Below, piece after piece: positions 1,841-29,611 of a stretch of 32,000 bases of DNA (the stretch's first letter is position 1; each line of letters begins with the position of its first letter). The stretch comes from Microcystis aeruginosa NIES-2549 (lineage in GTDB: Bacteria > Cyanobacteriota > Cyanobacteriia > Cyanobacteriales > Microcystaceae): the NCBI RefSeq assembly GCF_000981785.2, contig NZ_CP011304.1:3150001-3182000 (forward strand). Direction: 5' to 3'. A program made the position numbers and the translations under genes. Under the pieces are notes generated by a model. That model searched no databases and was not told the DNA's origin. It was given only the letters and a program-made list of their open reading frames with translations.

Positions 1841-2260
1841 CTGACAATAATCCTTACTTACAAGACACTGACGGAATCGTGAATAATTAAGTTTAAATAC
1901 TTAATAATGAGAAGGTGGATTGAAACCATTGACTCCAGAGATTATCTCTATCGGGGTAATTGCGATCGCTGGTGGTGACAGTGAGGGTAAACTGACCAAG
2001 CATCAAACACCCGAACCTACCCTGAGCATTATCGAAGCCTTCGTTAGTATAAGCCAATAGCGAACACCGGCAATTTTTTGGCGATCGCTAGTCTTTCTGG
2101 CGGAAGCTTCAGCCTAGTAGAATCTTGTTACTGTGGGCAAGGCTAATCCTAGGACTGAAAATTTTATCTAACCTTTAATCTTAGCAAGAACTTGCTACAT
2201 TTTTCCATAATTACGATAGAGTATTCTCATATAAGTACAAAAGAACTCGAAAAAGTCACC

Positions 2261-3082
2261 ATGTTGCAAAAGTTACGCCAACGTTACCCCCAAGTTGCCC
2301 TGATTAGTGAGTTAGTTCAAATCGATCACGGCAAGTATATTGTGAAAGCGAGCGTCGAAATTGAGGGAAAAACGGTCGTTACAGGTTTAGCGGCAGCAGA
2401 TACGGTGGAAATCGCCGAAGATAGAGCCAGAGAACGAGCTTTACTGCTTTTAGAGGCTGAAAGCTCTCCCGATCTCCAGCCTGTGGACAAAGTCAGCCCC
2501 AATAATATTTCTCTACCGTCCGATTTACCTAAACCCGTCGCTAGTGCCAAAAAATCGACCAAAACGGCTAAAGTCACTGAAATACCTCGTCCTGAAGCTA
2601 AAATTGAACCGGAATTACCCCCAGTTAAGGATATTCCCCCGGCTAAAATTGAACCGGAATTACCCCAAGTTGAGGATATTCCCCCGGCTAAAATTGAACC
2701 GGAATTACCCCAAGTTGAGGATATTCCCCCGGCTAAAATTGAACCGGAATTACCCCAAGTTGAGGATATTCCTTTACCAGAACCAGAGCCTTTATTATTA
2801 GAAATGGAAACCGATAATTACTCCTTATTATCAGAATTGCCAGAAGAAGCGAGTTTAACTGAAGAAGAACCCCCAGCACCAGAACCAGTTGTTGTTATTC
2901 CCGAAGAAATCGATTATTCAGTCCTTAAAACTAAAATTGATGTGGAGATGAAACGATTAGCTTGGACTACAGAAAAAGGTCGGGAATACCTGATTTCTAC
3001 CTATGGCAAAAAGTCCCGTTTACTACTAACTAACGAGGAGTTATTAGAATTCTATAACTACTTATCTAGTATCAGTGTCTGA
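2261..3082 (+). CDS. Hypothetical protein with a Pro/Glu-rich tandem-repeat linker between conserved-looking N- and C-terminal domains
   Basis: This is the ORF-track frame 2192..3082. I prefer the first ATG at 2261 (MLQKLRQRYPQVALISELVQIDHGKY...), because the 2192 start is a TTG. The central region repeats PAKIEPELPQVEDIP about four times. I did not recognise a family. Confidence 0.55.
   Translation: MLQKLRQRYPQVALISELVQIDHGKYIVKASVEIEGKTVVTGLAAADTVEIAEDRARERALLLLEAESSPDLQPVDKVSPNNISLPSDLPKPVASAKKSTKTAKVTEIPRPEAKIEPELPPVKDIPPAKIEPELPQVEDIPPAKIEPELPQVEDIPPAKIEPELPQVEDIPLPEPEPLLLEMETDNYSLLSELPEEASLTEEEPPAPEPVVVIPEEIDYSVLKTKIDVEMKRLAWTTEKGREYLISTYGKKSRLLLTNEELLEFYNYLSSISV
2597..2776 (+). repeat. 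In-frame 45-bp tandem repeat, 4 copies (gctaaaattgaaccggaattaccccaagttgaggatattcccccg)
   Basis: Direct reading gives units at 2597-2641, 2642-2686, 2687-2731 and 2732-2776. Units 2 and 3 are identical, and units 1 and 4 differ by a few bases. Confidence 0.9.
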
Positions 3083-8374: not shown

Positions 8375-10024
8375 TCACCAGCTGACTTTGCCTTGCAGCT
8401 TGTTGATTTTTCCCTGACCGATTCCCGATACTCGATCCAAATCTTCTAGGGAAGTAAAGGGTTTTTGTTGCCGGGCTGCGATAATTTTTTCAGCTAATTT
8501 GCCACTGATACCGGGTAAACTATCTAATTCTTCTTTGGTGGCGGTGTTTAAATTAATTAAGCGCTCGCTTTTAATTGTTACAGATTGGGGGCAGTTTTTT
8601 CTATCCTGTTCGATCCGATTTTTAATAGTTTCCGGCAGTCCTAATTTAGCGGTACGGTAAAGATATTGAAATTCTCGATCGAAATGAGCGGCAACGGTGG
8701 GATTATCGATAATAACTAAAGCTTCATCGTTTTTATGGTTAGCGGCTCTTGACCAATTATGAGAACCAGTAATCACAATTTTATCATCGATTAAACCGAA
8801 TTTATGGTGTAATTTATCTCCCGGGGCTAGAGCGGGAACTCCTAGGGTATTAATTGGGTTTTGCCAAGGCTGATTATCTGGTTCATAACGACATTTATTA
8901 CTGAGAGCAACTCCTAATAAATCTAATCCTTCGCTATAGTATCGGAAGGCAAAACTAGGATCAATTAAAGCCTTAATTTCTATCCCTTTTTGATGTCGTT
9001 GGGCGAGAATATTAGCTAAAGGCTGTTCCGTAAAGACAAACAGGGCTAAATCCACGGATTTTTTAGCTTTATTTAAAGTTTCACCGATCAAACCATTGCT
9101 AGTAATTGCCCAGGGATAAGTGGTAGAATCGGGGGAAAATTTTACCGTCAGAATACTATTACCGATAAGGATTGTTTGCGGTTTTCTCTGGGGTTTATCT
9201 AAGCCAAATTTATGCTGATCTTCCCTTCCCCACATCAGATTAAATTCTCTTTGAAAAACTCTAGCTAGTGGGGGATTATTAATGACTAATAAGTGATTGG
9301 CATTCCCGACAGTTTGGGGATTAGAAAAGTCTCCATGAATATCACTTAAGGTATAGTTAGCTGAACTGATTAAAGTAGTGTAATTATCAATAACCATGAA
9401 TTTATGGTGCATTAAACCGCTACCTTTTGAGCGATCAGTGCTATCATCAATTAGGGGAATACCAGCTTTTTTGAGGATAGTAATTGCATCTCTTTGGGCG
9501 ATTTCCTCTGGAGTTAATTTACCATCGCGATTTATGTCAACTAAGTCAAAAAGATTTTGATAACGTTCCTGTTCTCGATCACTTAATTGTTCTTGGTTTT
9601 TGGCTAAACTATTAATAGGTTTATTGTAAATATTTTCGAGGATAACCCTAACTTTAATTCCCTGTTGCTGACGAGTAGCTAAAGCTTGAGCGATGGCGGG
9701 TAAACGTAACTCTTGCACTGCTAGATCGATCGAAATTTTTGCCGAGTTGATATGATCAATAATAACCTGTTCTAAATTATCCCCTGGGCGATTAATTTGG
9801 CGATAGGGATCGGTATAATTTGAATTTCGGGCTTGATTATGATTAAAATAGACTTGAATATATTGATCTTGGGGCAAGGGTTGCGGACGATTTTGGATAA
9901 CATTCAGAGAATGACAACCACCCAAGAGAAAAACTGTTCCTAATAAAAATCCTAACTGTACCATGGGCAGAATTTTTTTTAATCTCCATTTATCTATTGC
10001 CATTTTTGCCCGCATAATTATCAT
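8375..10024 (-). CDS. Phospholipase D-family (two HKD motifs) nuclease-like lipoprotein with an EF-hand loop and a C-terminal ComEA-type helix-hairpin-helix DNA-binding domain
   Basis: HKD motifs are HHKFMVIDN and HHKFGLIDDKIVITGSHNWS. There is a canonical EF-hand loop, DINRDGKLTPEE. The C-terminus INLNTATKEELDSLPGISGKLAEKIIAARQQKPFTSLEDLDRVSGIGQGKINKL is ComEA-like. The N-terminus ...LGFLLGTVFLLGGCHS looks like a lipoprotein signal. The exact start is uncertain, since several in-frame Met codons exist. Confidence 0.75.
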   Translation of the reverse strand: MIIMRAKMAIDKWRLKKILPMVQLGFLLGTVFLLGGCHSLNVIQNRPQPLPQDQYIQVYFNHNQARNSNYTDPYRQINRPGDNLEQVIIDHINSAKISIDLAVQELRLPAIAQALATRQQQGIKVRVILENIYNKPINSLAKNQEQLSDREQERYQNLFDLVDINRDGKLTPEEIAQRDAITILKKAGIPLIDDSTDRSKGSGLMHHKFMVIDNYTTLISSANYTLSDIHGDFSNPQTVGNANHLLVINNPPLARVFQREFNLMWGREDQHKFGLDKPQRKPQTILIGNSILTVKFSPDSTTYPWAITSNGLIGETLNKAKKSVDLALFVFTEQPLANILAQRHQKGIEIKALIDPSFAFRYYSEGLDLLGVALSNKCRYEPDNQPWQNPINTLGVPALAPGDKLHHKFGLIDDKIVITGSHNWSRAANHKNDEALVIIDNPTVAAHFDREFQYLYRTAKLGLPETIKNRIEQDRKNCPQSVTIKSERLINLNTATKEELDSLPGISGKLAEKIIAARQQKPFTSLEDLDRVSGIGQGKINKLQGKVSW

Positions 10025-10243: not shown

Positions 10244-12670
10244 ATGACTGAACTTTTACCCCAATGCAGTAATCTGGCTGGTAATGTTAACAGTATAATT
10301 GAACTATGCAAAGGCGAATCTTCTCTCCGCAATCAACAGGATACCAGCAAGATAGAAATTGCCCTACAAAAAGCCATTTCTCCCAAATTTGAAATCGTTT
10401 TTGCTGGTGCTTTTAGTGCCGGGAAATCAATGTTAATCAATGCACTTTTAGAGCGAGAATTGCTCTATAGTGCCGAAGGACACGCAACGGGTACAGAATG
10501 TTATATTGAGTACGCAGAAGCTGATGAGGAAAGAGTGGTTTTAACCTTTCTCAGCGAAGTAGAAATTCGTACTTTAGTCGATACCGTCTGTCAAAATCTA
10601 CAATTAACTAATCCCAGTAACATTAATTCCCCCGAATACTGTAGTCAGTTAAACCAATACTGTCAAAAAATTATCGAACAGGAAGGGGGAGAAGGCAAAT
10701 CCGAGCGAGCTAAACAAGCTCAGGGTTTAAAATTATTAATTGAAGGATTTACTCAAAATCGTGAGCGGATCCATACGCTGCATAATGCCACCTATTCCAT
10801 GGAACAATTTCACTTTTCTAATTTAGCAGAAGCGGCCAGTTTTGCCCGTCGTGGTAGCAATAGTGCCGTCTTAAAACGTCTAGAATATTACTGTCATCAT
10901 CCTCTCCTTAAAGATGGTAACGTTTTGGTAGATTTGCCCGGTATTGATGCCCCAGTCAAAAAAGATGCCGCATTAGCCTATCGTAAAATAGAGCATCCTG
11001 ATACTTCAGCAGTGGTTTGTGTTTTAAAGGCTGCTTCTGCGGGAGAATTAGCCACAGAAGAAACGGAATTACTCGAAAAAATTCGCTCTAATGCTGGTAT
11101 TCGTGATCGAGTTTTTTATGTTTTTAACCGCATTGATGAAACCTGGTACTCAGCCCAACTAAAACAGCGTTTAGAAAATCTAATTCAAACGCAATTTCGT
11201 GATACTTCCCGCATTTATAAAACCAGCGGACTTTTAGGGTTTTATGGGTATCAGGTGAAAAATCAAACCAATATTAATCAGCGTTATGGTTTAGATTCTA
11301 TCTTTGCCGAAAGTGTTAAAAATTTAGGAGGAGAAGAAGAAACACCGCAATTTGTCAGCGAGTTTAATAACTATTGTGCCAACTCTGGGAAATTACTGGC
11401 AACTCCCTTTAAAGTTTCCATCCACGGTTATGAAACTCCTAATAAAAATTACTTCCGAGTTTTAAGTGAGTGGGGAACTCCTTTACTAGAGCAGTTAATT
11501 GCTGATAGCGGTATCGAAGAATTTCGCAGGGCAATTACTCGTTATCTCACCGAAGAAAAACGTCCGCAATTGTTTGCAACTTTAGCTGATGATTTACAAT
11601 CTCTCTGTATCACTCTCAAAAATCATTACCAAGGGATTTATCGTGATTTAGAAAGTCAACCACGAGAAATTGAGGCGATGAAAGCTCTGGAGTTAAATCA
11701 CCTCAATCAAGAGTTAAAGGAAGTGGGAGAGAAATTAACTAAACATATCGAGGGTTATGTCAATGCTATCGTGGTTAATAGCGATGAAAACTTTGAAGAA
11801 GACTTTAAGAAACTGAAAGCGAGAATGGTATCAAGATTGGATGAGTTATTAAATACTTTTTCTGTTAGAAATGCTTACTCGCAAGCGACTTTAACCCATC
11901 CTCGCAATGCTACAGCACCTTTATTAGCAGTATTAGTAGAAGCTTTTTATTATCTGTCTAACCAGCTAGAAGATGTGTTAATTGAGGAGTCAACCAGTTT
12001 AGTTAATCGCTTCTGTCAGCGTCTTTTAGATGCGGTAAGGCAAGGTGATTATTATCGGCAAATCTATCGTTTATTGGGTAACGATGGTGGCATAGAAAAT
12101 CAGCTAAAACAGTTAGAATTGCAGTTAATTCATGCCTTAGTTTCTCAAGGGAGAACAGAGTGCGATCGTTATGTAAGAGAAAATCACAATTTTTACAACG
12201 AAGGCACTTTTTCTATCTTTCAATTTCGGCAAACTGTCCAACAAACTGCCCAAGGTTATGACTGTGAAAGTATTCTTGATGCCGAACCTGCTATCCGTCA
12301 ATTACTTAAGTTAGATTTTGAGCCAAAAGTATCAGCGACAATTCAGATAAACTTCCGTCACACGGTTAATAATACTCTGAAAAATCAATTGATACCAATG
12401 GCAAAAAAACAAGCCGATACTATTCTACAACAGTTCAATCAAGCTCGTTCCTATCTAGAACAAACCTTAGAACAGGAAGCGGCGGAAAAAATTGCTAATA
12501 ATGCCCACAAACAGCAAGAAATTCACCAAAAAATTGAGGATTATAATCAAGCGATCAACTCTCTCAATACTTGTTTAACTGCTATGGGTTTACAGAAAAA
12601 TCATTTACCTGTAATTGGTGAACAAGAATTAGAGATTGTCCCAGAAGTTGTTAATCACTCCAGCAATTAA
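10244..12670 (+). CDS. Dynamin-family large GTPase (bacterial dynamin-like protein)
   Basis: The G1 P-loop is GAFSAGKS, G3 is DLPGID and G4 is NRID. A long helical or coiled-coil C-terminal region follows, and the protein is 808 aa. Confidence 0.8.
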   Translation: MTELLPQCSNLAGNVNSIIELCKGESSLRNQQDTSKIEIALQKAISPKFEIVFAGAFSAGKSMLINALLERELLYSAEGHATGTECYIEYAEADEERVVLTFLSEVEIRTLVDTVCQNLQLTNPSNINSPEYCSQLNQYCQKIIEQEGGEGKSERAKQAQGLKLLIEGFTQNRERIHTLHNATYSMEQFHFSNLAEAASFARRGSNSAVLKRLEYYCHHPLLKDGNVLVDLPGIDAPVKKDAALAYRKIEHPDTSAVVCVLKAASAGELATEETELLEKIRSNAGIRDRVFYVFNRIDETWYSAQLKQRLENLIQTQFRDTSRIYKTSGLLGFYGYQVKNQTNINQRYGLDSIFAESVKNLGGEEETPQFVSEFNNYCANSGKLLATPFKVSIHGYETPNKNYFRVLSEWGTPLLEQLIADSGIEEFRRAITRYLTEEKRPQLFATLADDLQSLCITLKNHYQGIYRDLESQPREIEAMKALELNHLNQELKEVGEKLTKHIEGYVNAIVVNSDENFEEDFKKLKARMVSRLDELLNTFSVRNAYSQATLTHPRNATAPLLAVLVEAFYYLSNQLEDVLIEESTSLVNRFCQRLLDAVRQGDYYRQIYRLLGNDGGIENQLKQLELQLIHALVSQGRTECDRYVRENHNFYNEGTFSIFQFRQTVQQTAQGYDCESILDAEPAIRQLLKLDFEPKVSATIQINFRHTVNNTLKNQLIPMAKKQADTILQQFNQARSYLEQTLEQEAAEKIANNAHKQQEIHQKIEDYNQAINSLNTCLTAMGLQKNHLPVIGEQELEIVPEVVNHSSN

Positions 12671-12845: not shown

Positions 12846-13706
12846 ATGGGAGAATGGTTAGATTTTACCGATGAGGTGGTCACTGTTAATAGCAAAGGTG
12901 AGGAAATTAAACGGGAAAAAGTCACTAATCGAGGTTATAAATATTTTTTAAGCAAAAAAACCTTTTTAGAGATGATTTCTATCCCTAGCGGTCAATACCT
13001 CATCGGTGCGCCCAAAAACGAGTTAGGCTGGAAATTGAGTCAAAGTCCCCAATCTCCGGTTAATATTCAGGCTTTTTGTCTGAGTCGCTACCCAATTACC
13101 CAACGACAATGGCGCGAGGTGGCAAAATTAGAACCGGTAAATATTGAACTTAATCCCTATCCGGCCCATTTTGAAGGTTACGATCGCCCCGTAGAACAAA
13201 TTAACTGGTGGGAAGCGGTGGAATTTTGCGATCGCGTATCCCGTCTCACCGGACTGAATTATCGTTTACCCGCAGAAAAAGAATGGGAATACGCTTGTCG
13301 GGGAGGAACATCAACCCCTTTTCACTTTGGCCCGACAATTTCCACTGATTTAGCCAACTATTCCGGGGTGGACTGGGATTATGGCGGGAAAGTGTGCAGT
13401 TCTGGTCGTTATGGGGAAGGTTCCCTAGGTTGCGATCGCAGAGAAACCACACCGGTGGGAATGTTTGCCGTCGCTAACCCTTTCGGACTCTACGATCTGC
13501 ACGGAAATGTCAGGGAATGGTGTGCAGATTACTGGCGCGATAACTACGAAGCAGCCACAATAGAAGATAGGGACAGACGAGTTTTACGCGGGGGTTCCTG
13601 GAATGACGGCCCTAACAAATGTCGCTCGGCCTACCGGGTCAAATTTCTGGCTACTGCTGGACTCTATGATATCGGTTTTCGTGTGGTTAGCGATAATTCT
13701 CCTTAA
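12846..13706 (+). CDS. Formylglycine-generating enzyme / SUMF1-EgtB-PvdO family domain protein (stand-alone)
   Basis: The motifs RLPAEKEWEYACRGG, GLYDLHGNVREWCADYW, RVLRGGSW and RSAYR are typical of the FGE-sulfatase fold. There is no signal peptide. Confidence 0.85.
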   Translation: MGEWLDFTDEVVTVNSKGEEIKREKVTNRGYKYFLSKKTFLEMISIPSGQYLIGAPKNELGWKLSQSPQSPVNIQAFCLSRYPITQRQWREVAKLEPVNIELNPYPAHFEGYDRPVEQINWWEAVEFCDRVSRLTGLNYRLPAEKEWEYACRGGTSTPFHFGPTISTDLANYSGVDWDYGGKVCSSGRYGEGSLGCDRRETTPVGMFAVANPFGLYDLHGNVREWCADYWRDNYEAATIEDRDRRVLRGGSWNDGPNKCRSAYRVKFLATAGLYDIGFRVVSDNSP

Positions 13707-13743
13707 ATCTGAAAACCGATCACTGATTACCGGTGACAGGGAG

Positions 13744-14061
13744 GTGAAAAAATTGAAAATAGAACTACCCCAGCAAATAATCAGCGAATTTTGTCAGAAA
13801 TGGCAGATATCTGAAATGTGTTTATTCGGATCGGTTTTGCGGGAAGATTTTCGTCCAGATAGCGATATTGATATACTGGTCAGTTTTCAAGATAGTGTTT
13901 CTTGGGGACTTCTGGAGTTTTCGAGGATGAAACGGGAATTAGAGAATTTATTGGGACGGAAAGTTGATTTGCTAACGAAAAAATCGATCGAGCAGAGTCA
14001 TAATTGGATTCGTCAACGAGAGATTTTAGAGACAGCACAAGTGATTTATGTGGCGGGATAA
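13744..14061 (+). CDS. mntA: MntA-type nucleotidyltransferase antitoxin (type VII TA)
   Basis: LFGSVLREDFRPDSDIDILV is the minimal nucleotidyltransferase GS...DxD motif. I trimmed the ORF-track start at 13603, which overlaps the FGE gene, to the GTG at 13744. A TTG at 13753, with GGAGG upstream, is also possible. Confidence 0.8.
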   Translation: MKKLKIELPQQIISEFCQKWQISEMCLFGSVLREDFRPDSDIDILVSFQDSVSWGLLEFSRMKRELENLLGRKVDLLTKKSIEQSHNWIRQREILETAQVIYVAG

Positions 14062-14389
14062 GGCTTTTTTACTAGATATTGTCCGAGCCGGTCAATTAGC
14101 TCAACAATTTGCCGAGCAACTGGATCGGGAACTACTAGAATCGGATTTACGCACCCAATCCGCGATTCTCTATCAAATTACTATTATGGGAGAAGCTACC
14201 AAGCGCCTATCCCCTGGATTTCGTAAACAACATCCAGAAATTCCTTGGGACGACATCGCCGGTATGCGAGATATTATCGCCCATCAATATGATCGGATCG
14301 ATCTTGATATCGTCTGGCAGGTTATTCGACGGAATATTCCTGAACTATTGAACTTGTTAATACCTTTATTGCCCACACAAGATACTTGA
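14048..14389 (+). CDS. hepT: HepT-type HEPN (DUF86) toxin
   Basis: The Rx4H HEPN motif is in MRDIIAHQYDRID. The protein is 113 aa, and a 14-nt overlap with the upstream nucleotidyltransferase is typical of MNT/HEPN pairs. Confidence 0.8.
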   Translation: MWRDKAFLLDIVRAGQLAQQFAEQLDRELLESDLRTQSAILYQITIMGEATKRLSPGFRKQHPEIPWDDIAGMRDIIAHQYDRIDLDIVWQVIRRNIPELLNLLIPLLPTQDT

Positions 14390-14532: not shown

Positions 14533-15108
14533 ATGATTGCTAACTTTGACTATAACTATCTTTCCCCGGAAGATTATTTAGCAACGGAGAGAATAGCCAA
14601 GGATAAACACGAATACATTCGCGGTCAAACCTACGCCATGGCTGGTGCAAGTAAAGCCCATGGTATGATTATTATCAACTTAGCCACACTTTTAAAAAAC
14701 CGGCTGCGGGGTAGTGGTTGTCTTGTCTATGCCACAGATATGAAAGTTCGTCTAGAAATAGCTAATAGTTATTTTTATCCCGATCTTGTGGTCACTTGCG
14801 ACTCGCGAGATAATCGGTCTTTCTCGGAAGATTTTATCCGTTATCCGCGCTTGATTGTAGAAGTATTATCCCCCACTACTGCTGCCTTTGACCGGGGCGA
14901 TAAATTTGCCGACTATCGTTCGATCGAAACTTTAGAAGAATACGTTCTTATCAGTCAAGAACGCATCAGTGTAGATTGTTTTCGTCGCAATGACGAAGGA
15001 TTCTGGGTTCTTTATCCCTACAGCAAAGGAGCAGATATTTATCTAGCTAGTATCGATTTTCACTGTGCGATCGAATCTTTATATGAAGATATAACAGAAA
15101 TCTGTTAA
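14533..15108 (+). CDS. Uma2 family (DUF820) putative restriction-endonuclease-fold protein
   Basis: The layout EYIRGQ...MAGAS..H...YPDLVV...P.LIVEVLSPTT...DRGDKFADY is the characteristic cyanobacterial Uma2 pattern. Confidence 0.8.
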   Translation: MIANFDYNYLSPEDYLATERIAKDKHEYIRGQTYAMAGASKAHGMIIINLATLLKNRLRGSGCLVYATDMKVRLEIANSYFYPDLVVTCDSRDNRSFSEDFIRYPRLIVEVLSPTTAAFDRGDKFADYRSIETLEEYVLISQERISVDCFRRNDEGFWVLYPYSKGADIYLASIDFHCAIESLYEDITEIC

Positions 15109-16262: not shown

Positions 16263-16436
16263 CGTGGCGCCGCCCCCAAACCCCCCGCGCATTAGTTTTT
16301 CGGTGGGATGCTTACACGCGATTGTTCATATTTTTGTACTAATTTAAGAGTCACTGATAATTGCTGATTGTTGGTATTTCTGCAAGTGTGGGATGCACCC
16401 TTATTCAGGAGATTATTTTATTTATTCTCCCCTCTC

Positions 16437-16537
16437 CCCAATTCCCCAATTCCCCAATTCCCCACTTCCCCAATTCCCCAATTCCCACACCCCACACCCC
16501 ACACCCTACACCCTACACCCCACTTCCCAATTCATAA
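16437..16537. repeat. Short tandem repeat array: CCCCAATT-type 8-mers followed by CCCACAC / CCTACAC 7-mers
   Basis: Direct reading gives ccccaatt ccccaatt ccccaatt ccccactt ccccaatt ccccaatt cccacac cccacac cccacac cctacac cctacac... Confidence 0.85.
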
Positions 16538-16625: not shown

Positions 16626-16650
16626 CTACACCCTACACCCCACTTCCCAA

Positions 16651-16685
16651 TTCATAATTCATAATTCATAATTCATAATTCATAA
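16651..16685. repeat. (TTCATAA)5 heptamer tandem repeat
   Basis: Read directly from the sequence. It overlaps the last codons and the stop codon (16673-16675) of the O-antigen-ligase-like gene. Confidence 0.9.
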
Positions 16686-17947
16686 TTTAACCTTTGACTC
16701 ACCCCGGCAATAGCAGCCAAGAGAAACCAAACAATAGTATTAATCTTGACATCGGAGAGGGTAACATCGACGAGATTAAATAAAACACAAGCACCAAAGG
16801 CCACCAGATAGGTAAAGATAATTAACTCACCCCCGGCTTTTTGTTGCCGTAGAAAGATAAATAAACGCAACCCTTGAGCATAAATCCAACCCACCCAAAC
16901 AGACAATAAAATTAAGCCAATAATTCCCGTTTCTGCCATTAACATCAAATATAAATTATGGGGATGACCCAACCATAATCCCTGACTTTTTTCGTAGAGA
17001 GGTGTAAAACTGCGTAATCCCCAACCGAATAGGGGTCTTTCTTGGGTCATTTCTAGAGTAAAACGCCATTGAGTTGATCTGAGAGTAGCTAGAGGGCGAT
17101 TAGGGAACATTTCATCGGATAATCGCGCCCAAATCGCCCTAGGAACCAAAAAACGCAAACTATCCCTGAAAGGATTTGGCCCCCAAGAAGCAAGAGAAAT
17201 CACCCCTCCCAAGAGGACAAAACCGGCGACTAAGGCATTCCAACCCAGATAAAGGGCGAAAATTAGGCACCCTAAAAAGGCTAAGGCCCAAGCATTGCGA
17301 GAATTACTTAAAAATAGCCCTACACTATCGATAAATATGGTTAAAGTTAAAAACCCGATTTTGAGATTTAGATTCCGATTTCTTTGTCTGTGCCACTGCC
17401 GACAAGTTAGAATTAATAAACCGAGGGCTAAAATCAGAGTTATGAGTAAATAAGCCCCCAAAAGATTAGCATACATAAAAACCGAAGACATTCGCCCCAA
17501 AGGTTCACCCCCCGCTCCGTAGGGCCAGGTAAAAATCCCTTTTAATGCTTCCGGTTTTTGCCAACCGAGAAAAATTTGTCCCCATCCCATCACCACTACC
17601 CAAACTGAGGGGATAACCATCGCCCAAGCTAGTTGACGCAATTGAGAGGGTTTTTTAATTAATTGCCGAATATTGCTAAAAAAGAAGAAAAAAGGCAGGA
17701 AATTTCCTAAACCAATCCAAGCATTCCCCGGAGTTAGGGAAAGACTGGCACTAATCATCAACCAAAGAGTGACGATACCGAGACCTTGATTGAGACGTGA
17801 CTGGATAATTGCCCGAAAATTGCCAGTAAAAACCCTAATTAACACGATAATAATGCCGATACCCGCTAACTCTGGCAGGATCATGGCGATAAAAACTGAA
17901 AAAAGTATTAAATTCCACTCCCACCCTTGACAAAAAATCTTTTTCAT
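16673..17947 (-). CDS. O-antigen ligase / polymerase (Wzy_C) family membrane protein
   Basis: The protein is polytopic, and a central segment ...LFLSNSRNAWALAFLG... is typical of the O-antigen ligase domain. I prefer the ATG at 17947 (MKKIF...), which sits 1 nt after the upstream gene's stop. The ORF-track start is 17974. Confidence 0.65.
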   Translation of the reverse strand: MKKIFCQGWEWNLILFSVFIAMILPELAGIGIIIVLIRVFTGNFRAIIQSRLNQGLGIVTLWLMISASLSLTPGNAWIGLGNFLPFFFFFSNIRQLIKKPSQLRQLAWAMVIPSVWVVVMGWGQIFLGWQKPEALKGIFTWPYGAGGEPLGRMSSVFMYANLLGAYLLITLILALGLLILTCRQWHRQRNRNLNLKIGFLTLTIFIDSVGLFLSNSRNAWALAFLGCLIFALYLGWNALVAGFVLLGGVISLASWGPNPFRDSLRFLVPRAIWARLSDEMFPNRPLATLRSTQWRFTLEMTQERPLFGWGLRSFTPLYEKSQGLWLGHPHNLYLMLMAETGIIGLILLSVWVGWIYAQGLRLFIFLRQQKAGGELIIFTYLVAFGACVLFNLVDVTLSDVKINTIVWFLLAAIAGVSQRLNYEL

Positions 17948-20872: not shown

Positions 20873-22936
20873 ATGCCCCAAGATACTACTAAACAAGCAA
20901 CGGAAAACCCTGTTGTGTCCGACCAGTCCTCCAAGAATCCCTTTTCACTATTTGGTCAATTTTGGGAAAGCCTAAAAATTGTGGCTCAACCCTATTGGTA
21001 TCCAACGGAGTTAAATGGACGTGCCTTTGGAGATGTACTCATTTCTTGGGGGATGTCAGCTTTGGTTTTTTTAAGTATCTTGGCAACGGTGGGGGTAGAA
21101 GCTTTTAGTAGTTACTGGAATCGTTATGTACTCGATATTATTATTGAAGATAGAGACCTTTCTAAATATCTAAATACGTTGTGGTTATCCAGTTTTTTGA
21201 TTATCGTGGCAACGGGTTTATTTGCTTTTTCTCAATTTATTCGTCGCAAAGTAGCCTTAGATTGGTATCAATGGTTAACGAAACAAACCGTTAAAAAGTA
21301 TCTCAATTATCGCGCTTATTATAATATTGATTTTACCTCGGACTTAAAAAATCCCGATCAAAGACTATCTCAAGAAATTGAACCAATTACGACCATGACC
21401 CTAAGGTTGTTAATTACCTTCGTGGAAAAAGGGTTACAAATGATTACTTTTGCGATTATTCTTTGGACAATTTCTCGGCAAATTGCGGTTTATCTGATCA
21501 TTTATACGATCACAGGAAATTTAATAGCAATTTATCTAACTCAAGAATTAAACAAAATTAATCAATCTGAACTTAATAATAAAGCTGATTATAATTATGC
21601 TTTAACCCATGTGCGTAACCACGCCGAATCCATTGCTTTTTTTCAGGGAGAAGAGCAGGAAGAAAAAATCATTGAAGGCCGTTTTGAACGGGTTATTCAA
21701 AGCTCGGAAAAACTGATCAATTGGGAACGGTTTAATAATCTTTTTAATCGAGGTTATCAGTCAGCGATTAGTGTATTTTCAATGTTTATTTTGACCCCGA
21801 TGTTTATTAAAAACGAAATCGATTATGGGGAAATTAGTCAAGCGAGTTTATGCTGTTTCCTTTTTTCTAATGCCTTGGGACAATTAATTACTGAATGGGG
21901 AACATCGGGTAAAGTTTCAAGTTATATTGAACGGTTAGCTACCTTGACAGATGCCTTAAAAGTTGCCAGTGAAGAGCCGAAAAACTTAAGTCGTATTATC
22001 ACCCTGGAAGATAATCGTCTAGCTTTTGAAAATTTTACCCTACAAACTCCCGATTATGAAAAGGTAATTGTGGAGAATTTATCGGTTTCTGTTCCTTTGG
22101 GAGAAAGCCTACTGATTATTGGCCCCAGTGGTCGAGGAAAAAGTTCCTTGTTACGAGCAATCGCCGGTTTATGGAAAGCAGGTAGCGGCCGTTTAGTGCG
22201 TCCTCCTTTAGCTAAAATGTTATTTTTACCCCAACGTCCTTATATTATCCTTGGCACTTTACGCCAGCAATTACTTTATCCCCATACCAATGAGCAGGTG
22301 AGCGATGAAGAATTAGAAAACATCTTAAAAAAAGTCAACCTGCAACATTTATTAACTGACAAAAATACCTTAGATAAACAAGTCAATTGGGAACAAATTT
22401 TATCTCTGGGAGAACAGCAAAGACTAGCTTTTGCTCGACTATTAATCACTAAACCCACTTTTACTATCTTAGATGAAGCAACCAGCGCTTTAGATTTGGC
22501 CAATGAAGCCAGCTTATATCAGCAATTACAGGAAAGTGAAACCACTTTTATTAGTGTTGGTCATCGGGAAAGTTTATTTAATTATCATCGATGGGTCTTA
22601 GAGTTAACAGAAAATTCCCATTGGCAGCTGTCAACTGTAGAAGATTATCAGCGCAAAAAAGTTAATAACCTAGTGATGACATCAAAAAAATCAGAAAATT
22701 TCTCGGCGGTAAAAATAGAGACTTTGTCTGAGGTTAAAACTGAGCATGATGCGGAAATTGCCGGAGTTTCTGAAATAGCCGAAGGTTTGTCCCATCAACA
22801 AATGCAGTCTCTAACTGATTATTCTTTAAGTAACGTCCGGAGTCGTGCCAGTTTAGGTAAAATTATTACTGCCAAAGATGGTTTTAATTATCGTTACGAT
22901 AAAGACCCAAAAACCTTAAAATGGGTGAGAATATAG
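20873..22936 (+). CDS. mdnE: ABC transporter, fused permease and ATPase (SbmA/BacA-ABCD-like TMD); microviridin cluster transporter MdnE-like
   Basis: Walker A is GPSGRGKSS, the signature is LSLGEQQRLAFARL and Walker B is FTILDEATSALD. The N-terminal half is membrane-spanning. The gene is adjacent to the GNAT and converges on the ATP-grasp genes. A tail of about 90 aa follows the NBD. Confidence 0.7.
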   Translation: MPQDTTKQATENPVVSDQSSKNPFSLFGQFWESLKIVAQPYWYPTELNGRAFGDVLISWGMSALVFLSILATVGVEAFSSYWNRYVLDIIIEDRDLSKYLNTLWLSSFLIIVATGLFAFSQFIRRKVALDWYQWLTKQTVKKYLNYRAYYNIDFTSDLKNPDQRLSQEIEPITTMTLRLLITFVEKGLQMITFAIILWTISRQIAVYLIIYTITGNLIAIYLTQELNKINQSELNNKADYNYALTHVRNHAESIAFFQGEEQEEKIIEGRFERVIQSSEKLINWERFNNLFNRGYQSAISVFSMFILTPMFIKNEIDYGEISQASLCCFLFSNALGQLITEWGTSGKVSSYIERLATLTDALKVASEEPKNLSRIITLEDNRLAFENFTLQTPDYEKVIVENLSVSVPLGESLLIIGPSGRGKSSLLRAIAGLWKAGSGRLVRPPLAKMLFLPQRPYIILGTLRQQLLYPHTNEQVSDEELENILKKVNLQHLLTDKNTLDKQVNWEQILSLGEQQRLAFARLLITKPTFTILDEATSALDLANEASLYQQLQESETTFISVGHRESLFNYHRWVLELTENSHWQLSTVEDYQRKKVNNLVMTSKKSENFSAVKIETLSEVKTEHDAEIAGVSEIAEGLSHQQMQSLTDYSLSNVRSRASLGKIITAKDGFNYRYDKDPKTLKWVRI

Positions 22937-23043
22937 CTAATGGGGTGACAAACAGATTGAAAGTGAGACAGAGTATTCAGACTTCCCCCTCTCAGGAGAA
23001 CTAGAGAATGAGGTTTTTGCTGGGTAAGTTGATTAACAAGCTA

Positions 23044-23072
23044 CTAACTGATAACTGATAACTGATAACTGG
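23044..23072. repeat. (CTGATAA)n heptamer array
   Basis: Direct reading gives ctaactgataactgataactgataactgg, just upstream of the GNAT gene. Confidence 0.85.
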
Positions 23073-23089
23073 TATAGGAGTTTTATCAA

Positions 23090-23623
23090 ATGAAAGCACT
23101 GGAAAAACTGGTGACGGAACGATTATATTTAGTCCCCTTCAAGCTTGAACTTCTCAAGGCCGCAATTATAGGTATCGATGAATTAGCAACAATTTTGGGG
23201 GTAAAAGTTGCAGCTGACTGGGCCGAACAAGAGTTGATTCAAGCTTTCCCTGATATTGCCAATATTTTGCTGCAATTCCCCTTACAAAATGAGTGGGGGT
23301 GGGGGAGTTTAATTATTCATCAAGCAGAAAATACCCTTATTGGTCATGTGATGATCAAAATTATTCCTGATGTCACAGGTTTACCCACAGATGCTGTAGA
23401 AATTGGCTATCAAGTAGCGCCGTTATATCGACGACAAGGCTACGCATCCGAGGCGACAAAAGCAATGATGGACTGGACACTTTCTCAACCTGGTATGCAA
23501 ACAGTGACCGCCGGCTGCGCTCCCGATAATATAGCTTCAAAGCGAGTTTTAGAAAAAATAGGCATGGATCTGATAGAAGCACGAGAGAAAGTCTTGGTCT
23601 GGAAATTAAGTAGGGTTTGCTGA
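23090..23623 (+). CDS. mdnD: GNAT family N-acetyltransferase (RimJ/RimL-like); MdnD-like
   Basis: The acetyl-CoA-binding segment is ...IGYQVAPLYRRQGYASEATKAMMDW.... It is 177 aa. The context matches the known N-acetylation of microviridins. Confidence 0.75.
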   Translation: MKALEKLVTERLYLVPFKLELLKAAIIGIDELATILGVKVAADWAEQELIQAFPDIANILLQFPLQNEWGWGSLIIHQAENTLIGHVMIKIIPDVTGLPTDAVEIGYQVAPLYRRQGYASEATKAMMDWTLSQPGMQTVTAGCAPDNIASKRVLEKIGMDLIEAREKVLVWKLSRVC

Positions 23624-23809
23624 AAAAGTTTGTTGGTGGGGTTAGGAGTCAGTTATCAGTTATCAGTTATCAGTTATCAGTTCACTGAGAAAACTCCCCA
23701 CTTCCCCACTTCCCACACCCTACACCCTCTTTCAAGTCAGGAGTCGGGGGGAATCGGGAGTCAGAGCCTCGTCGATGCGATAAAATACTCTGGCTCTGTC
23801 TTTGCCAGT
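23611..23809. mobile_element. MITE-related repeat element filling the mdnD-mdnC spacer
   Basis: It starts with the same terminus, TAGGGTTTGCTGAAAAAGTTT, as the element at 3087. It contains (CAGTTAT)4 at 23650-23677 (a degenerate fifth unit, cagttca, extends it to 23684) followed by CCCCACTT/CCCACAC/CCTACAC units. The far terminus is degenerate. Confidence 0.45.
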
Positions 23810-24784
23810 TTATGAGTTGACAAGGATTTCAGCGATTGCCTGGGAGATAGGAAAATAAGGAGGATAAAGTTCTAGCCAGAAAAACTCGCCAACGGGATTA
23901 ATTTCTAAAAAGATATAACGTTCATCTGGTGTGACAATCATATCAATTGCACCATAATTAAGACCGAAATATTTCATTAATTCTAGTAGTTGCTTTTCAA
24001 TAGTTTTCGGTAAATCGTAGGGTTGCCATTGTTGATGGAGCGCTCTTCCCTCTTTTCGCCAATCGTAGATAGCGCCGTCTAATTGTTGGGAATTAATCGC
24101 CGCCGTAAATATTTGTTCACCGACGATAGTGATGCGTAATTCCAAAGCTTTAGGAATGTTTTCCTGAAAAGTCATGGGACAAAATTGCAAACCTTCCAAA
24201 TTATCTAGGTCTTCCTTAGTAACAGGACTTGTAAAAACAACCATTTCCTCTTGCTTGTCTCCATAAATAGCAAATTGAGAAAGCATTTTAGTCACAATTC
24301 CTGTCGCTTCAAACTCCTGAGCAAATTGCTTGACAGCTTCAGGATTATTAGAAGTTAAAGTCCCAGGAATTAATAAACCTAATTGTTGCGCTACTTGTAA
24401 CTGCAATTGTTTATGATTGGCATGATCTACCTTAGCAATTGGGTCAAGATGAAAACCAGATAAACTAGCAATCATTCCTCGAATACTTAACCGACATTCC
24501 TTAAGAGAAGCTTCGCGAAATTGACTATCCATCCCATCGGGTAATTTTAGTCCGTATCTCATGCGTCGATACCAGACAGAAGAAACTTCTTTTAGCTCTA
24601 ATTTTTGTTCTCCATCGGTAATAATTCCGCCTTTTTTATCGTCTGAGTAAAGATCAACTTTCACCTCTGTAGGGAAGCGATCAGTATCAAAACGGAAGGC
24701 TTTTTTCCCCATCGTTTCTATGGCTTTGATTACCAGAGGAATACTTTCATTATCGTGGCTAAAAGTAACAATTAAAACGGTCAT
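23810..24784 (-). CDS. mdnC: Microviridin ATP-grasp ligase MdnC (omega-ester / lactone-forming)
   Basis: It has the RimK-type ATP-grasp fold. From the ATG at 24784 (AAGGAAA RBS upstream) the protein starts MTVLIVTFSHDNESIPLVIKAIE..., which matches my recollection of the MdnC N-terminus. The ORF-track start at 24841 is a TTG that overlaps mdnB. Confidence 0.9.
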   Translation of the reverse strand: MTVLIVTFSHDNESIPLVIKAIETMGKKAFRFDTDRFPTEVKVDLYSDDKKGGIITDGEQKLELKEVSSVWYRRMRYGLKLPDGMDSQFREASLKECRLSIRGMIASLSGFHLDPIAKVDHANHKQLQLQVAQQLGLLIPGTLTSNNPEAVKQFAQEFEATGIVTKMLSQFAIYGDKQEEMVVFTSPVTKEDLDNLEGLQFCPMTFQENIPKALELRITIVGEQIFTAAINSQQLDGAIYDWRKEGRALHQQWQPYDLPKTIEKQLLELMKYFGLNYGAIDMIVTPDERYIFLEINPVGEFFWLELYPPYFPISQAIAEILVNS

Positions 24785-24837
24785 AGATTTCCTTGAAAAC
24801 TTAGGATTAACAATTTTTTGAGCGCCAGCTTTGCCGA

Positions 24838-25818
24838 TCAACCGAAGACTAAAAAATCAGCGATTGCATTAGAAATAGGTAAATCTAAATCCCGTTCTAA
24901 CATTCCCCACTCACCACCCGGATTAACTTCTAAAAAAACGTATTCTCCCCCAGGAGTTAAGATAAAATCAAACGCCCCAAAATTCAACCCTAAATTAGCC
25001 ATAAAAATCTGAAGTTGCTGCAATAGTGAATCGGGTAAAGTATGATGTTGCCAAGCACCAGGATCAATACCAGGTCTTCGCCAATCTACGGCAGAATTAT
25101 TATACTGAGAAGATTCTAAAGCTCCCACAAATGTCTGTCCATTAACCACGACAACTCTCAATTCTAATTGTTTGGGAATTTCCGCTTGAAAAACCATGGG
25201 ACAATAGCGTAAAGATTCCGCTTCCTCAAGGTCTTCTGCTTTCACCCTACTGGTATAAAGAAAAAATTCCGGCGATTCCATGCTGTGGGCGATCGCAGTT
25301 AACAATTTACTCACCATTCTTCCCTGAACCTGGGAAAAAAACTCCCGGGCAGCATCAGGATTATTGGTAACTAAGGTAGGGGGAATAATTAAGCCAACTT
25401 CTGAGGCCAAACGAAGTTGTAATAACTTATTTTTAGCCTTCTCAATTTGCGCTAAATTATCTAACCAACGCGCTGACCTTAAACTATCCCAAAAACCAGC
25501 CAAAGTCGTCTGGGATTCTCGCACACAAACCTCCCGAAACTGAGGATCTAAATCTCCTGTTAGTTCAGGTTGCCAAATACGTCTTGTCCAAACAGATTGC
25601 ACCTGTTGACTATCAATAGATTGATGGTTATAGGTTAATTGATAAAAACTTTTTTTACCATTAAATTGGGCTGCTAATTGAACCTCTAAGGGAAATTTAT
25701 CGGTATCTAAGCGAAAAGGTGTGACTCCTTTTTTTTCTATCGCCTCAGCCACGCGGTCAATCGTGAAAAAATCGCCGCTATGGGTCAACAATAAAACAAC
25801 TTTAGGCGATTCTTTCAT
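24838..25818 (-). CDS. mdnB: Microviridin ATP-grasp ligase MdnB (omega-amide / lactam-forming)
   Basis: This second ATP-grasp paralogue (326 aa, MKESPKVVLLLTHSGDFFTIDRVAEAIEKKG...) lies immediately downstream of the precursor gene, as in mdnA-B-C. Confidence 0.88.
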   Translation of the reverse strand: MKESPKVVLLLTHSGDFFTIDRVAEAIEKKGVTPFRLDTDKFPLEVQLAAQFNGKKSFYQLTYNHQSIDSQQVQSVWTRRIWQPELTGDLDPQFREVCVRESQTTLAGFWDSLRSARWLDNLAQIEKAKNKLLQLRLASEVGLIIPPTLVTNNPDAAREFFSQVQGRMVSKLLTAIAHSMESPEFFLYTSRVKAEDLEEAESLRYCPMVFQAEIPKQLELRVVVVNGQTFVGALESSQYNNSAVDWRRPGIDPGAWQHHTLPDSLLQQLQIFMANLGLNFGAFDFILTPGGEYVFLEVNPGGEWGMLERDLDLPISNAIADFLVFG

Positions 25819-25945
25819 ATCAGTTGCAAGTCCTTACATTTTAACCCATCTTAAGGCTTTTGGGTCGGTCTTTATTGATCCTAATCTCAAGAAAATGCTG
25901 CAAAAAGTCTTGCTTTTGCTTGACTTATTGCAGTATTGGTTTTTT

Positions 25946-26084
25946 CTTGAGTAATTACTAAAGTTACTTTACAGCACTTCTCAGGATCTCAACGTGCAGT
26001 TTTTTTGGCTGCGAGCCTTGTTAGTGGAGCCTTTAGCTTTTTGTCTGTACGGTGTAATCAAGAAAAGTGCTGTAATTACTCAAG
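25946..26084 (-). promoter_or_regulatory. Long-range inverted repeat (potential RNA stem) in the mdnA-mdnB spacer
   Basis: cttgagtaattac...agcactt (25946-25979) is the reverse complement of aagtgct-gtaattactcaag (26065-26084). That gives 13 + 7 bp with a 14-nt bulge and encloses about 85 nt. It begins about 10 nt after the mdnA stop on the transcript. Confidence 0.4.
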
Positions 26085-26094
26085 TGATCTGAGT

Positions 26095-26247
26095 TTAATA
26101 CTCTTCCCAGTCAGAAGGGTATTTCAAGGTGGTCCCGAAGGTAGGCTCAGGGGAAGGAGACTTGATGGAAGATTCCTCTTTGCTTACGGACAAGAAACGA
26201 GCAAAGAAAGGAAGTGCTTTACCTTGTTGATCGTTGGGATATGCCAT
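26095..26247 (-). CDS. mdnA: Microviridin precursor peptide MdnA (50 aa), core FGTTLKYPSDWEEY
   Basis: It is below the size cut-off of the ORF track. My hand translation is MAYPNDQQGKALPFFARFLSVSKEESSIKSPSPEPTFGTTLKYPSDWEEY*. GAGG lies 7 nt upstream of the ATG. The PFFARFL leader motif and the KYPSDWEE core motif are both present. Confidence 0.95.
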   Translation of the reverse strand: MAYPNDQQGKALPFFARFLSVSKEESSIKSPSPEPTFGTTLKYPSDWEEY

Positions 26248-26729
26248 AGTTATTCCTCTGGTAATTTCGAGTGAATAGGTTTAATCACTCAGACAAAACT
26301 AACAACCTGTACTAACCCTTGAAAGCTTTGCTGTGCATGGCTTTCAGAATTGGGATTGTGCAAATAATTTGCCTTTGTTTGGGTGATGGGAAACATAATA
26401 AGCACTAATCTGGCCAATGTCAAGCACTTAAGAACAATTTCTGCTAAATCCGACATTCAGCATATCTTCATATACTTGTATATGTTTTTACATTCCCCAA
26501 GATGTTTTAACGAAAAACCTTGATTATAGAAACTACTATTGAGAACATTGTCAATAATTGATTTTTTCTGAGAAAAAAATTTACAATTCTTCACCTTGAT
26601 CAAAATCCATGATTGTAGCTATAATCCTTACTGGACAAGGATTGTAAGCAATATATTGGTAAAAATTATTAATTGAATGTTAAGAAGTGCGGAAAGTGGG
26701 ATTTAATACTCCACACTTAAAACTCAAAT

Positions 26730-26774
26730 CTGATAACTGATCACTGATAACTGATCACTGATAACTGATAGCTG
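26730..26774. repeat. (CTGATAA / CTGATCA)n heptamer array
   Basis: Direct reading gives ctgataa ctgatca ctgataa ctgatca ctgataa ctgatag ctg. It lies between the rodA stop and the region upstream of mdnA. Confidence 0.9.
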
Positions 26775-28089: not shown

Positions 28090-28287
28090 CTAGGGTTTGC
28101 TCAATAAATCTAAAAACATTGTTCGATAAGACTTTTAGACCTTTTTGAAATCCAAAAGCACCGGACATTGGAGTGATTGGGGGGAAAATTTAGGGACTTT
28201 TTCCCTGAAAATGGGTAAAATCCTACACCCTACACCCTACACCCTACACCCTGCCCCCACCGAAAAACTTTTTGCCGCAAACCCTAA
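28090..28287. mobile_element. MITE-like element, copy 2 (inverted relative to 3087-3305)
   Basis: It aligns along its length with the reverse complement of 3087-3305, including ggggggaaaatttagggactttttccctgaaaat and a (CCTACAC)n array. The termini are CTAGGGTTTGCTCAATAAATCT and AAACTTTTTGCCGCAAACCCTAA. Confidence 0.6.
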
Positions 28288-29345: not shown

Positions 29346-29611
29346 GGTTTCAGTGTCTCTAATCAAGTATTGTTCTTATGGTTATTTATCTTAACCTTGA
29401 TGCCCGCACAGTTATCAGTGGGGAGTGGGGAGTTTTTTGCTGTGAACAGTGAACAGTAAGTAGTCGTGCAAAATTAATTTCCTAGTGAAGATAGGCAAGA
29501 GGCACTCATGCAATAGGCAAGAGCGGGGTTAGATATGTGTAATTAATTTTGCTTAGGTACTTAATCAGTGAACTGAAAACTCACATCTGATAACTGATAA
29601 CCTCTATCCCC

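Follow-up and report, generated by a model that had tools for sequence, protein, structure and literature searches.

A 32,000-nucleotide stretch of DNA from Microcystis aeruginosa NIES-2549, referred to throughout as the window, was examined computationally for genes of the microviridin (mdn) pathway, which produces peptides made by the ribosome and modified after translation (RiPPs). We conclude, with very little doubt, that the window carries the chromosomal mdn cluster of the M. aeruginosa NIES-2549/NIES-2481 type, that this cluster encodes the protease inhibitor microviridin B, and that it has the arrangement standard for this bloom-forming genus. In that arrangement, the genes for the precursor and the two ATP-grasp ligases (mdnA-B-C) converge on those for an ABC transporter and a GNAT acetyltransferase (mdnE-D). 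This convergent mdnABC/mdnED layout is the norm in Microcystis, is specific to the genus, and is the exception among cyanobacteria. The cluster, its product, its enzymes (including their crystal structures), and the source genome have all been published and annotated already, and beyond the answer on gene layout the analysis adds little to what is known of mdn; a hairpin after mdnA, a fossil of mdnE, and the C-terminal tail of MdnE are minor leads. Coordinates of all mdn features are collected in Table 1.

Identification of the cluster and its predicted product

All five Mdn proteins are letter-for-letter matches to database proteins of Microcystis NIES-2549 or NIES-2481, and for MdnB and MdnE exact matches were seen in these two strains only. 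At the DNA level, identity to NIES-2481 is 99.76% over 13.2 kb, and identity to NIES-843 is 95-97%. MdnA is an exact match to the UniRef entry B2G3C3_MICAE, named 'Microviridin', and its final 14 residues, FGTTLKYPSDWEEY, are exactly those of microviridin B as its sequence is given in PMC7823629. The predicted product is thus Ac-FGTTLKYPSDWEEY, i.e. microviridin B, the same as in strain NIES-298. A microviridin cluster is already listed in the genome paper for NIES-2481 (PMC5865083), and this, together with the exact protein matches and the named precursor, makes the cluster one that is known and annotated. An earlier note on this DNA, made from the letters alone, had recognized five microviridin functions and had assigned them to a known rather than a new natural-product family. 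Both assignments were borne out, the former by the ORF (open reading frame) list combined with curated family thresholds or orthology tests, and the product can now be named.

For the precursor, the leader contains PFFARFL at residues 13-19 and has a Pro-rich end (SPSPEP); it is followed by a single C-terminal core, which includes TLKYPSDWEE and has Thr4, Lys6, Ser9, Asp10, Glu12, and Glu13 all present. The published core motif of microviridins is TxKxPSDx(E/D)(E/D) (PMC7823629, PMC5934393). Only one ORF in the window encodes PFFARFL.

The two ligases were compared with solved structures. MdnB aligned with the Microcystis crystal structure 5IG8 over residues 1-326 (724.2 bits) and MdnC with crystallized MdnC, 5IG9, over residues 1-324 (710.6 bits), both scores being those of near-identity. 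By their curated equivalog models, which leave no ambiguity, MdnB is the predicted ligase for the omega-amide (lactam) ring, and MdnC the ester-forming ligase predicted to make two omega-ester (lactone) rings. A TTG at 24841 would be an alternative start for the mdnC ORF; the start taken in the earlier note, the ATG at 24784, gives the 324-residue database protein and is supported both by that exact match and by the full-length 5IG9 alignment. As is usual, mdnB directly precedes mdnC. Leader motif, single core, both ligases, GNAT, and an ABC protein lacking a C39 peptidase domain were all found, as in members of microviridin class I.

It is improbable that the cluster, although present, is silent or defective in this strain. 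The cluster is known here from its genes alone, which would accommodate such a reading, but all five ORFs are full-length and intact, there is near-identity between the enzymes and crystallized, active proteins, and a known producer has the very same precursor. A promoter-like element and a ribosome-binding site before mdnA are also conserved (see below). Furthermore, mRNA of the microviridin precursor ranked among the most abundant Microcystis transcripts in a natural bloom (PMC4139720).

Gene layout in Microcystis and other cyanobacteria

Gene layout was surveyed by tblastn searches with the five proteins in 80 loci, one genome per species, chosen by MdnC similarity. Eight of these were Microcystis representatives and 72 were loci from other genera; a homologue of MdnE was scored at a minimum of 50% identity over at least 300 residues. 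Both mdnD and mdnE were present in 4 of the 8 Microcystis representatives (L001, L004, L007, and L008), and all four had A, B, and C on one strand and D and E on the other (A+ B+ C+ D- E-), like the window. The same order, E> D> <C <B <A, was found in NIES-2481 and NIES-843 with identical flanking genes, namely an amine oxidase and a DUF7219 gene on one side and rodA and mrp on the other. The complete genome of FBCC-A1114 has both the layout and the flanking genes, and two metagenome contigs (L087 and L093) have the convergent order. The window corresponds to this type I locus, in which mdnA-B-C converges on mdnE-D between the DUF7219 gene and rodA.

Outside Microcystis, MdnE was encoded on the ligase strand in 62 of 72 loci and MdnD in 18 of 72, with no case of either on the opposite strand. 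Gene orders there include E-B-C-A (Snowella), E-D-B-C-A (Planktothrix), and A-B-C-E-D (many Nostocales), and homologues of mdnE or mdnD adjoin both ligase genes in Snowella, Planktothrix, Nostoc, Scytonema, Brasilonema, and others. The earlier note had been unsure whether D and E normally run in the same direction as the other genes. In Microcystis they are not co-directional with A-C, and the layout is the norm of the genus, not an oddity of the window. No worded statement of mdn gene orientation was found in the literature searched, which consisted of text without figures and without the likeliest source papers. The layout matters for cloning or refactoring of the mdn cluster, because two promoters, not one operon, would have to be considered.

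A second arrangement exists within the genus. In this type II locus the genes are co-directional, D>A>B>C>A2>, with no mdnE nearby (L003, 5475-9396; L091, 5243-9119). It occupies another chromosomal position, adjoining genes for RNase E and RNase HII and a nonribosomal peptide synthetase gene; mdnD accompanies mdnA-C there, and the second precursor, A2, which follows mdnC, is Snowella-like (...APVWTWKWPSDWEDS). In two further Microcystis representatives (L002 and L005), neither D nor E lies within 8 kb.

A convergent layout might also have arisen in this strain only, through a recent flip between inverted heptamer arrays, or might be an artefact of assembly. Inverted arrays do flank mdnD (23045-23071/23650-23676, 100% over 27 nt) and mdnA-B-C (23649-23682/26735-26768, 94% over 34 nt). 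We nevertheless regard this as highly unlikely, as layout and flanks recur in NIES-843, NIES-2481, FBCC-A1114, draft genomes, and metagenome contigs; arrays of this kind are common throughout the window, and the type II arrangement lies at another site, without these arrays, and is no simple flip of type I.

Even less credence can be given to the suggestion that the ABC and GNAT genes are chance neighbors of a cluster consisting of mdnA-B-C only, which draws on their position on the other strand beyond a spacer, on the tricyclic peptide obtained from mdnA-C alone in Escherichia coli (PMC7823629), and on L002 and L005, but which is largely refuted by synteny: E (55-85% identity) and D (60-70%) stand beside the ligases in the 62 and 18 loci of other genera despite differing gene orders, D moves with A-B-C to the type II site, MdnE is 75% identical to Planktothrix proteins named MvdA in databases, and published roles exist for MdnD/MvdB in acetylation and for MdnE in correct processing (PMC7823629). 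The earlier note had held that ABC and GNAT genes conserved beside unrelated genes would speak against their membership; what was found is that their homologues adjoin ligase genes across cyanobacterial orders. As there is no curated MdnD model, MdnD orthology rests on the 60-70% identity to GNATs in microviridin clusters of other genera, and in the 18 non-Microcystis loci these mdnD homologues adjoin mdnE homologues.

Inferred transcription units

Upstream of mdnA, a candidate promoter of the sigma-70 type matches the consensus at 11 of 12 positions, and the ATG is preceded, at a distance of 6 nt, by a GAGGA ribosome-binding site. The promoter candidate is present in 8 Microcystis loci of both types, with the -35 element and spacer invariant and the -10 element reading TAT(T/G)AT. 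In these loci about 220 nt upstream of the mdnA ATG are conserved, and homology stops beyond. This conservation supports mdnA-B-C as a putative self-contained unit. Judged from gene orientation and the match to the promoter consensus, the cluster would comprise two converging units, mdnA-B-C with its own promoter and mdnE-D. A promoter scan of the region gave no convincing mdnE promoter.

The convergent layout is most parsimoniously viewed as a derived, genus-wide state, reached by one inversion of E-D in the A-B-C-E-D order of the Nostocales. No finding contradicts this overall picture of the cluster, but two observations limit it. Promoter-like sites in the region are no commoner than in shuffled sequences, and the argument for an mdnA promoter is consequently one from conservation, not from the scan. 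In addition, a fossil of mdnE before mdnB shows that the history of the locus had more than one step, beyond a single inversion of E-D.

Table 1. Features of the mdn cluster and adjoining DNA in the window
Feature	Position	Strand	Description
mdnE	20873..22936	+	687 aa, ABC half-transporter; Pfam ABC_membrane_2 119.8 bits, ABC_tran 76.1 bits
(TAACTGA)x3.9	23045..23071		In the 153 bp separating mdnE from mdnD; complementarity to 23650-23676 is 100% over 27 nt
mdnD	23090..23623	+	177 aa, GNAT; Pfam Acetyltransf_3 72.5 bits, Acetyltransf_1 48.5 bits
Convergent spacer	23624..23809		186 bp separating the mdnD and mdnC 3' ends; ends of the spacer conserved, center variable among strains
(TCAGTTA)x4.9	23649-23682		In the convergent spacer
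(TCCCCACT)x2.5	23695-23714		In the convergent spacer
mdnC	23810..24784	-	324 aa, MvdD-family ATP-grasp; TIGR04184 557.2 bits (cut-off 475)
mdnB	24838..25818	-	326 aa, MvdC-family ATP-grasp; TIGR04185 532.7 bits (cut-off 425)
mdnE 3'-end fossil	25835..25866	-	32 nt, 84% identity to the last 32 nt of mdnE, in frame
Extended hairpin (predicted fold)	25948..26082	-	135 nt, beginning 13 nt beyond the stop codon of mdnA
mdnA	26095..26247	-	50-aa precursor; NF033738 (microviridin/marinostatin model) 40.1 bits (cut-off 26), Pfam Inhibitor_I10
Candidate sigma-70-type promoter of mdnA(-B-C)	26395..26423	-	TTGACA-17 nt-TATTAT, 148 nt before the ATG
(CTGATAA)x6.4	26730..26774		Between rodA and the mdnA promoter region; inverted relative to the spacer array

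A fossil of mdnE and the history of the locus

The fossil corresponds to the very end of mdnE and stops 16 nt short of the mdnB start codon. It reads DPKALRWVKM-stop, compared with DPKTLKWVRI-stop in the intact gene, with the stop codon included. Its local alignment score of 39 was reached by none of 300 dinucleotide shuffles (mean 24, maximum 32), and it occurs at the identical place in every Microcystis locus examined, in both locus types. The closest relative in the set is Snowella, whose intact mdnE (85% identity) stands directly upstream of mdnB and whose precursor gene follows mdnC; some Microcystis keep a second precursor of the Snowella type after mdnC.

On the simplest reading, a cassette of promoter, mdnA, and hairpin would have replaced the upstream copy of mdnE in the Microcystis ancestor, and the remaining E-D pair would have been inverted downstream. 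An ancestor with two mdnE copies is plausible, since the ligases are flanked by a pair of mdnE paralogues in many loci of the Nostocales. The fossil may then be taken as a record of how the mdn locus was rebuilt.

A hairpin downstream of mdnA

The intergenic region between mdnA and mdnB (25819-26094, 276 nt) has a predicted folding energy of -77.2 kcal/mol, compared with -49.9 +/- 4.4 kcal/mol for shuffled sequences (z -6.15, 0/200). For the hairpin alone the value is -40.4 kcal/mol (z -5.0). The hairpin is nearly invariant in the 8 Microcystis loci, with too little variation for covariation to be assessed, in contrast to the core-peptide codons just upstream, which are hypervariable. The 28-nt arm of the hairpin was seen a single time in each of 8 loci and 10 metagenome contigs, in every case between mdnA and mdnB, and the hairpin is therefore not a dispersed repeat; an origin as a dispersed mobile element was rejected, the arm being found only downstream of mdnA. 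A scan of 25819-26094 gave no terminator-like site, and an A-rich stretch follows the hairpin. Because it is not followed by a U-tract, the hairpin is not a canonical intrinsic terminator.

Folding downstream of precursor genes was then compared across other genera. For the 160 nt after precursor genes, the median fold z-score was -2.55 (98 non-Microcystis cases), compared with -0.75 after other long ORFs (n = 150), which were taken from the same loci, shuffle numbers being unequal between the two sets. The Mann-Whitney p value of 4e-10 overstates the evidence, since the loci compared are mutually related, and the greater structure after precursor genes is best described as a trend, not proof.

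Other RiPP operons also have stem-loops behind the precursor gene; at the nisA/nisB junction of the lantibiotic nisin genes, for instance, a stable one separates the small, strongly expressed precursor gene from those of the enzymes. The mdnA hairpin holds a like position, although it is long (135 nt) and lacks a U-tract. A stabilizing or attenuating stem-loop at the 3' end, behind a strong promoter, would fit the abundance of precursor mRNA in the bloom. We tentatively propose, as a possibility somewhat short of an even chance, that hairpin and near-consensus promoter together act as an RNA device that stabilizes a short mdnA transcript and/or attenuates read-through into mdnB-C, keeping precursor mRNA far above enzyme mRNA, and that structured RNA after the precursor gene is possibly a general, undescribed feature of microviridin clusters. 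No description of such a hairpin after mdnA was found in the literature searched.

MdnE and its C-terminal domain

Only ABC_membrane(_2) and ABC_tran, the transmembrane and nucleotide-binding domains, were detected in MdnE by Pfam, and a C39 peptidase domain is absent. The closest solved relatives are plant ABCD1 (357 bits), M. tuberculosis Rv1819c (6TQE, 207 bits), and ABCD4 (206 bits). MdnE is a half-transporter of the ABCD/Rv1819c type, unlike the peptidase-containing bacteriocin exporters.

Beyond residue ~590, MdnE continues with a variable linker and then a conserved C-terminal domain of about 50 residues (residues ~637-687, window 22781-22933). The consensus of this tail is GLSHxEMQxLTxYSxxTIRxKAS.GKxITTKDGxTYRYxKDPKVLKWVR, and it is found in Microcystis, Snowella, and Nostocales and is absent from the 597-residue Planktothrix MvdA. 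AlphaFold2 gave a confident model (predicted local distance difference test, pLDDT, 91-96) with a strand-helix-helix arrangement followed by three strands. Foldseek returned no significant match to this fold in the PDB (best E 0.4, template-modeling score at most 0.38), no Pfam family was found for the tail, and a homology search with 55 residues returned fragments only. When a profile of the tail was compared with PDB sequences, weak hints of sigma-70 region 4 were obtained (E 0.2-1.5). Assignment of the tail as a winged helix or as a RiPP recognition element was not adopted, as there were only weak profile hints and no Foldseek match. The C-terminal domain might bear on the scaffold role proposed for MdnE.

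Proposed biosynthetic route

The steps of biosynthesis were taken from published work on near-identical proteins. MdnA would be translated as a 50-residue precursor, whose PFFARFL leader helix is expected to bind and activate MdnC. With ATP, MdnC would form the Thr4-Asp10 ester first and the Ser9-Glu12 ester second in the core FGTTLKYPSDWEEY, whereupon MdnB would close the Lys6-Glu13 amide. The leader would be cut off by a protease encoded outside the window, and MdnD would then acetylate the new N terminus of the processed peptide. MdnE, a peptidase-free ABC protein of the membrane, is expected to keep the complex there, and it may export the product. The ring order, leader dependence, acetylation step, and scaffold role of MdnE are described in PMC7823629, according to which acetylation is assigned to MdnD/MvdB and MdnE is required for correct processing and thought to anchor the complex at the membrane, export being only possible.

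The earlier note had also stated that no leader protease is encoded. This holds for the 32-kb window, where a Pfam domain scan found no peptidase domain in any ORF of at least 100 residues. A protease-free window is as expected, because NosP, an M1 protease found in 2026 for leaders of the Nostoc/Planktothrix type, is encoded elsewhere, and the protease for Pro-rich Microcystis leaders of the SPSPEP type is not yet known (PMC13039773).

Comparison with known clusters

The mdnA-E cluster of M. aeruginosa NIES-298 makes microviridin B (Ziemert et al. 2008, as cited in PMC7823629). Its 50-residue precursor is identical to that of the window, the five functions and the predicted product are equal, and no difference of substance was found apart from the strain. 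The apparent identity of the two clusters is judged from the precursor protein and the near-identical enzymes, not from a DNA alignment. The NIES-843 cluster, which served as the reference mdn cluster in Humbert et al. 2013 (PMC3741299), is identical to the window in gene order, orientation, and chromosomal neighbors. It differs in its core, YGGTFKYPSDWEDY, and in its C-D spacer, which measures 263 bp compared with 186 bp and has other repeat content.

For Planktothrix agardhii, the mvdA-F genes constitute the microviridin K cluster (Philmus et al. 2008, as cited in PMC7823629). The five functions are equal to those in the window, with protein identities of 69% (B), 78% (C), 61-63% (D), and 75% (E). 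Unlike in the window, all Planktothrix genes are co-directional (L012-L015), the precursor gene comes after the ligases, the leader lacks a Pro-rich end and is cleaved by a NosP-type M1 protease (PMC13039773), and MvdA lacks the C-terminal tail of MdnE. In the Nostocales, e.g. Nostoc punctiforme PCC 73102 (microviridins N3-N9), A-B-C is followed by E and often D, and the ligases are 62-75% identical to those of the window. These loci differ in that E and D are co-directional with A-C, and multiple precursor genes are often present, as are two mdnE paralogues with the ligases between them.

Convergent spacer and heptamer arrays

The spacer on which the two units converge had been described in the earlier note as 186 bp long and filled with repeats. 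The length is correct; the description of its content is so only in part, tandem repeats accounting for about 54 of 186 nt. Four TAACTGA/TCAGTTA heptamer arrays are present in the window (23045-23071, 23649-23682, 26730-26774, and 29571-29601), three of which border mdn units in alternating orientation, and the array at 26735-26768 is complementary to that at 23649-23682 over 34 nt (94%). Other arrays of 7-8-nt units occupy many intergenic regions of the window (e.g. 16435-16523, 16649-16687, and 28222-28252). Since heptamer and other arrays are found throughout the window, the repeats are a genome-wide feature and not one of the spacer, and any special status for them was rejected, the center of the spacer also differing between strains. 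The 61-residue ORF at 23630-23815 carries a gene annotation in NIES-2481 and is a mere translation of the spacer repeats.

Further interpretations of the spacer and its arrays were considered and rejected. A scan of the spacer (23624-23809) for an intrinsic terminator gave no terminator-like site, and its predicted RNA structure was not significant (fold z-scores +0.6 to -1.6), which disposed of a terminator or structured RNA there; a conserved 7-bp inverted repeat just after mdnC showed no compensatory change. A role for the inverted arrays as a switch flipping mdnABC or mdnD was likewise dismissed, as the sole alternative arrangement (type II, L003 and L091) lies elsewhere and lacks these arrays. 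A remnant of a Snowella-type second precursor in the spacer was discounted too, given the single PFFARFL ORF of the window.

Other features of the window

The neighbors of the cluster are ordinary chromosomal genes, among them pdxJ, ycf54, a dynamin-like GTPase gene, an MNT/HEPN pair, rodA, and mrp, and no tRNA or Rfam match was found anywhere in the window. Genes for an MNT-like nucleotidyltransferase and a HepT-like (HEPN) ribonuclease overlap in a toxin-antitoxin-like manner, and are followed by a Uma2-family endonuclease gene (13603-14389, plus strand; 14533-15108, plus strand). At 8375-10024 (minus strand), a 549-residue protein with two PLD-like domains and a C-terminal helix-hairpin-helix is encoded divergently from an 808-residue dynamin-family GTPase (10244-12670, plus strand). 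A 45-bp tandem repeat of 3.9 copies (98% identity, 2597-2772) lies inside an ORF at 2192-3082 (plus strand), which encodes 296 residues with no Pfam match; the repeat would encode a 15-residue unit. Finally, about 190 bp between rodA and mrp (about 28092-28284), including (CCTACAC)x4.4, are present in the window and unaligned in NIES-2481, a difference that is probably a repeat-associated indel between close strains.

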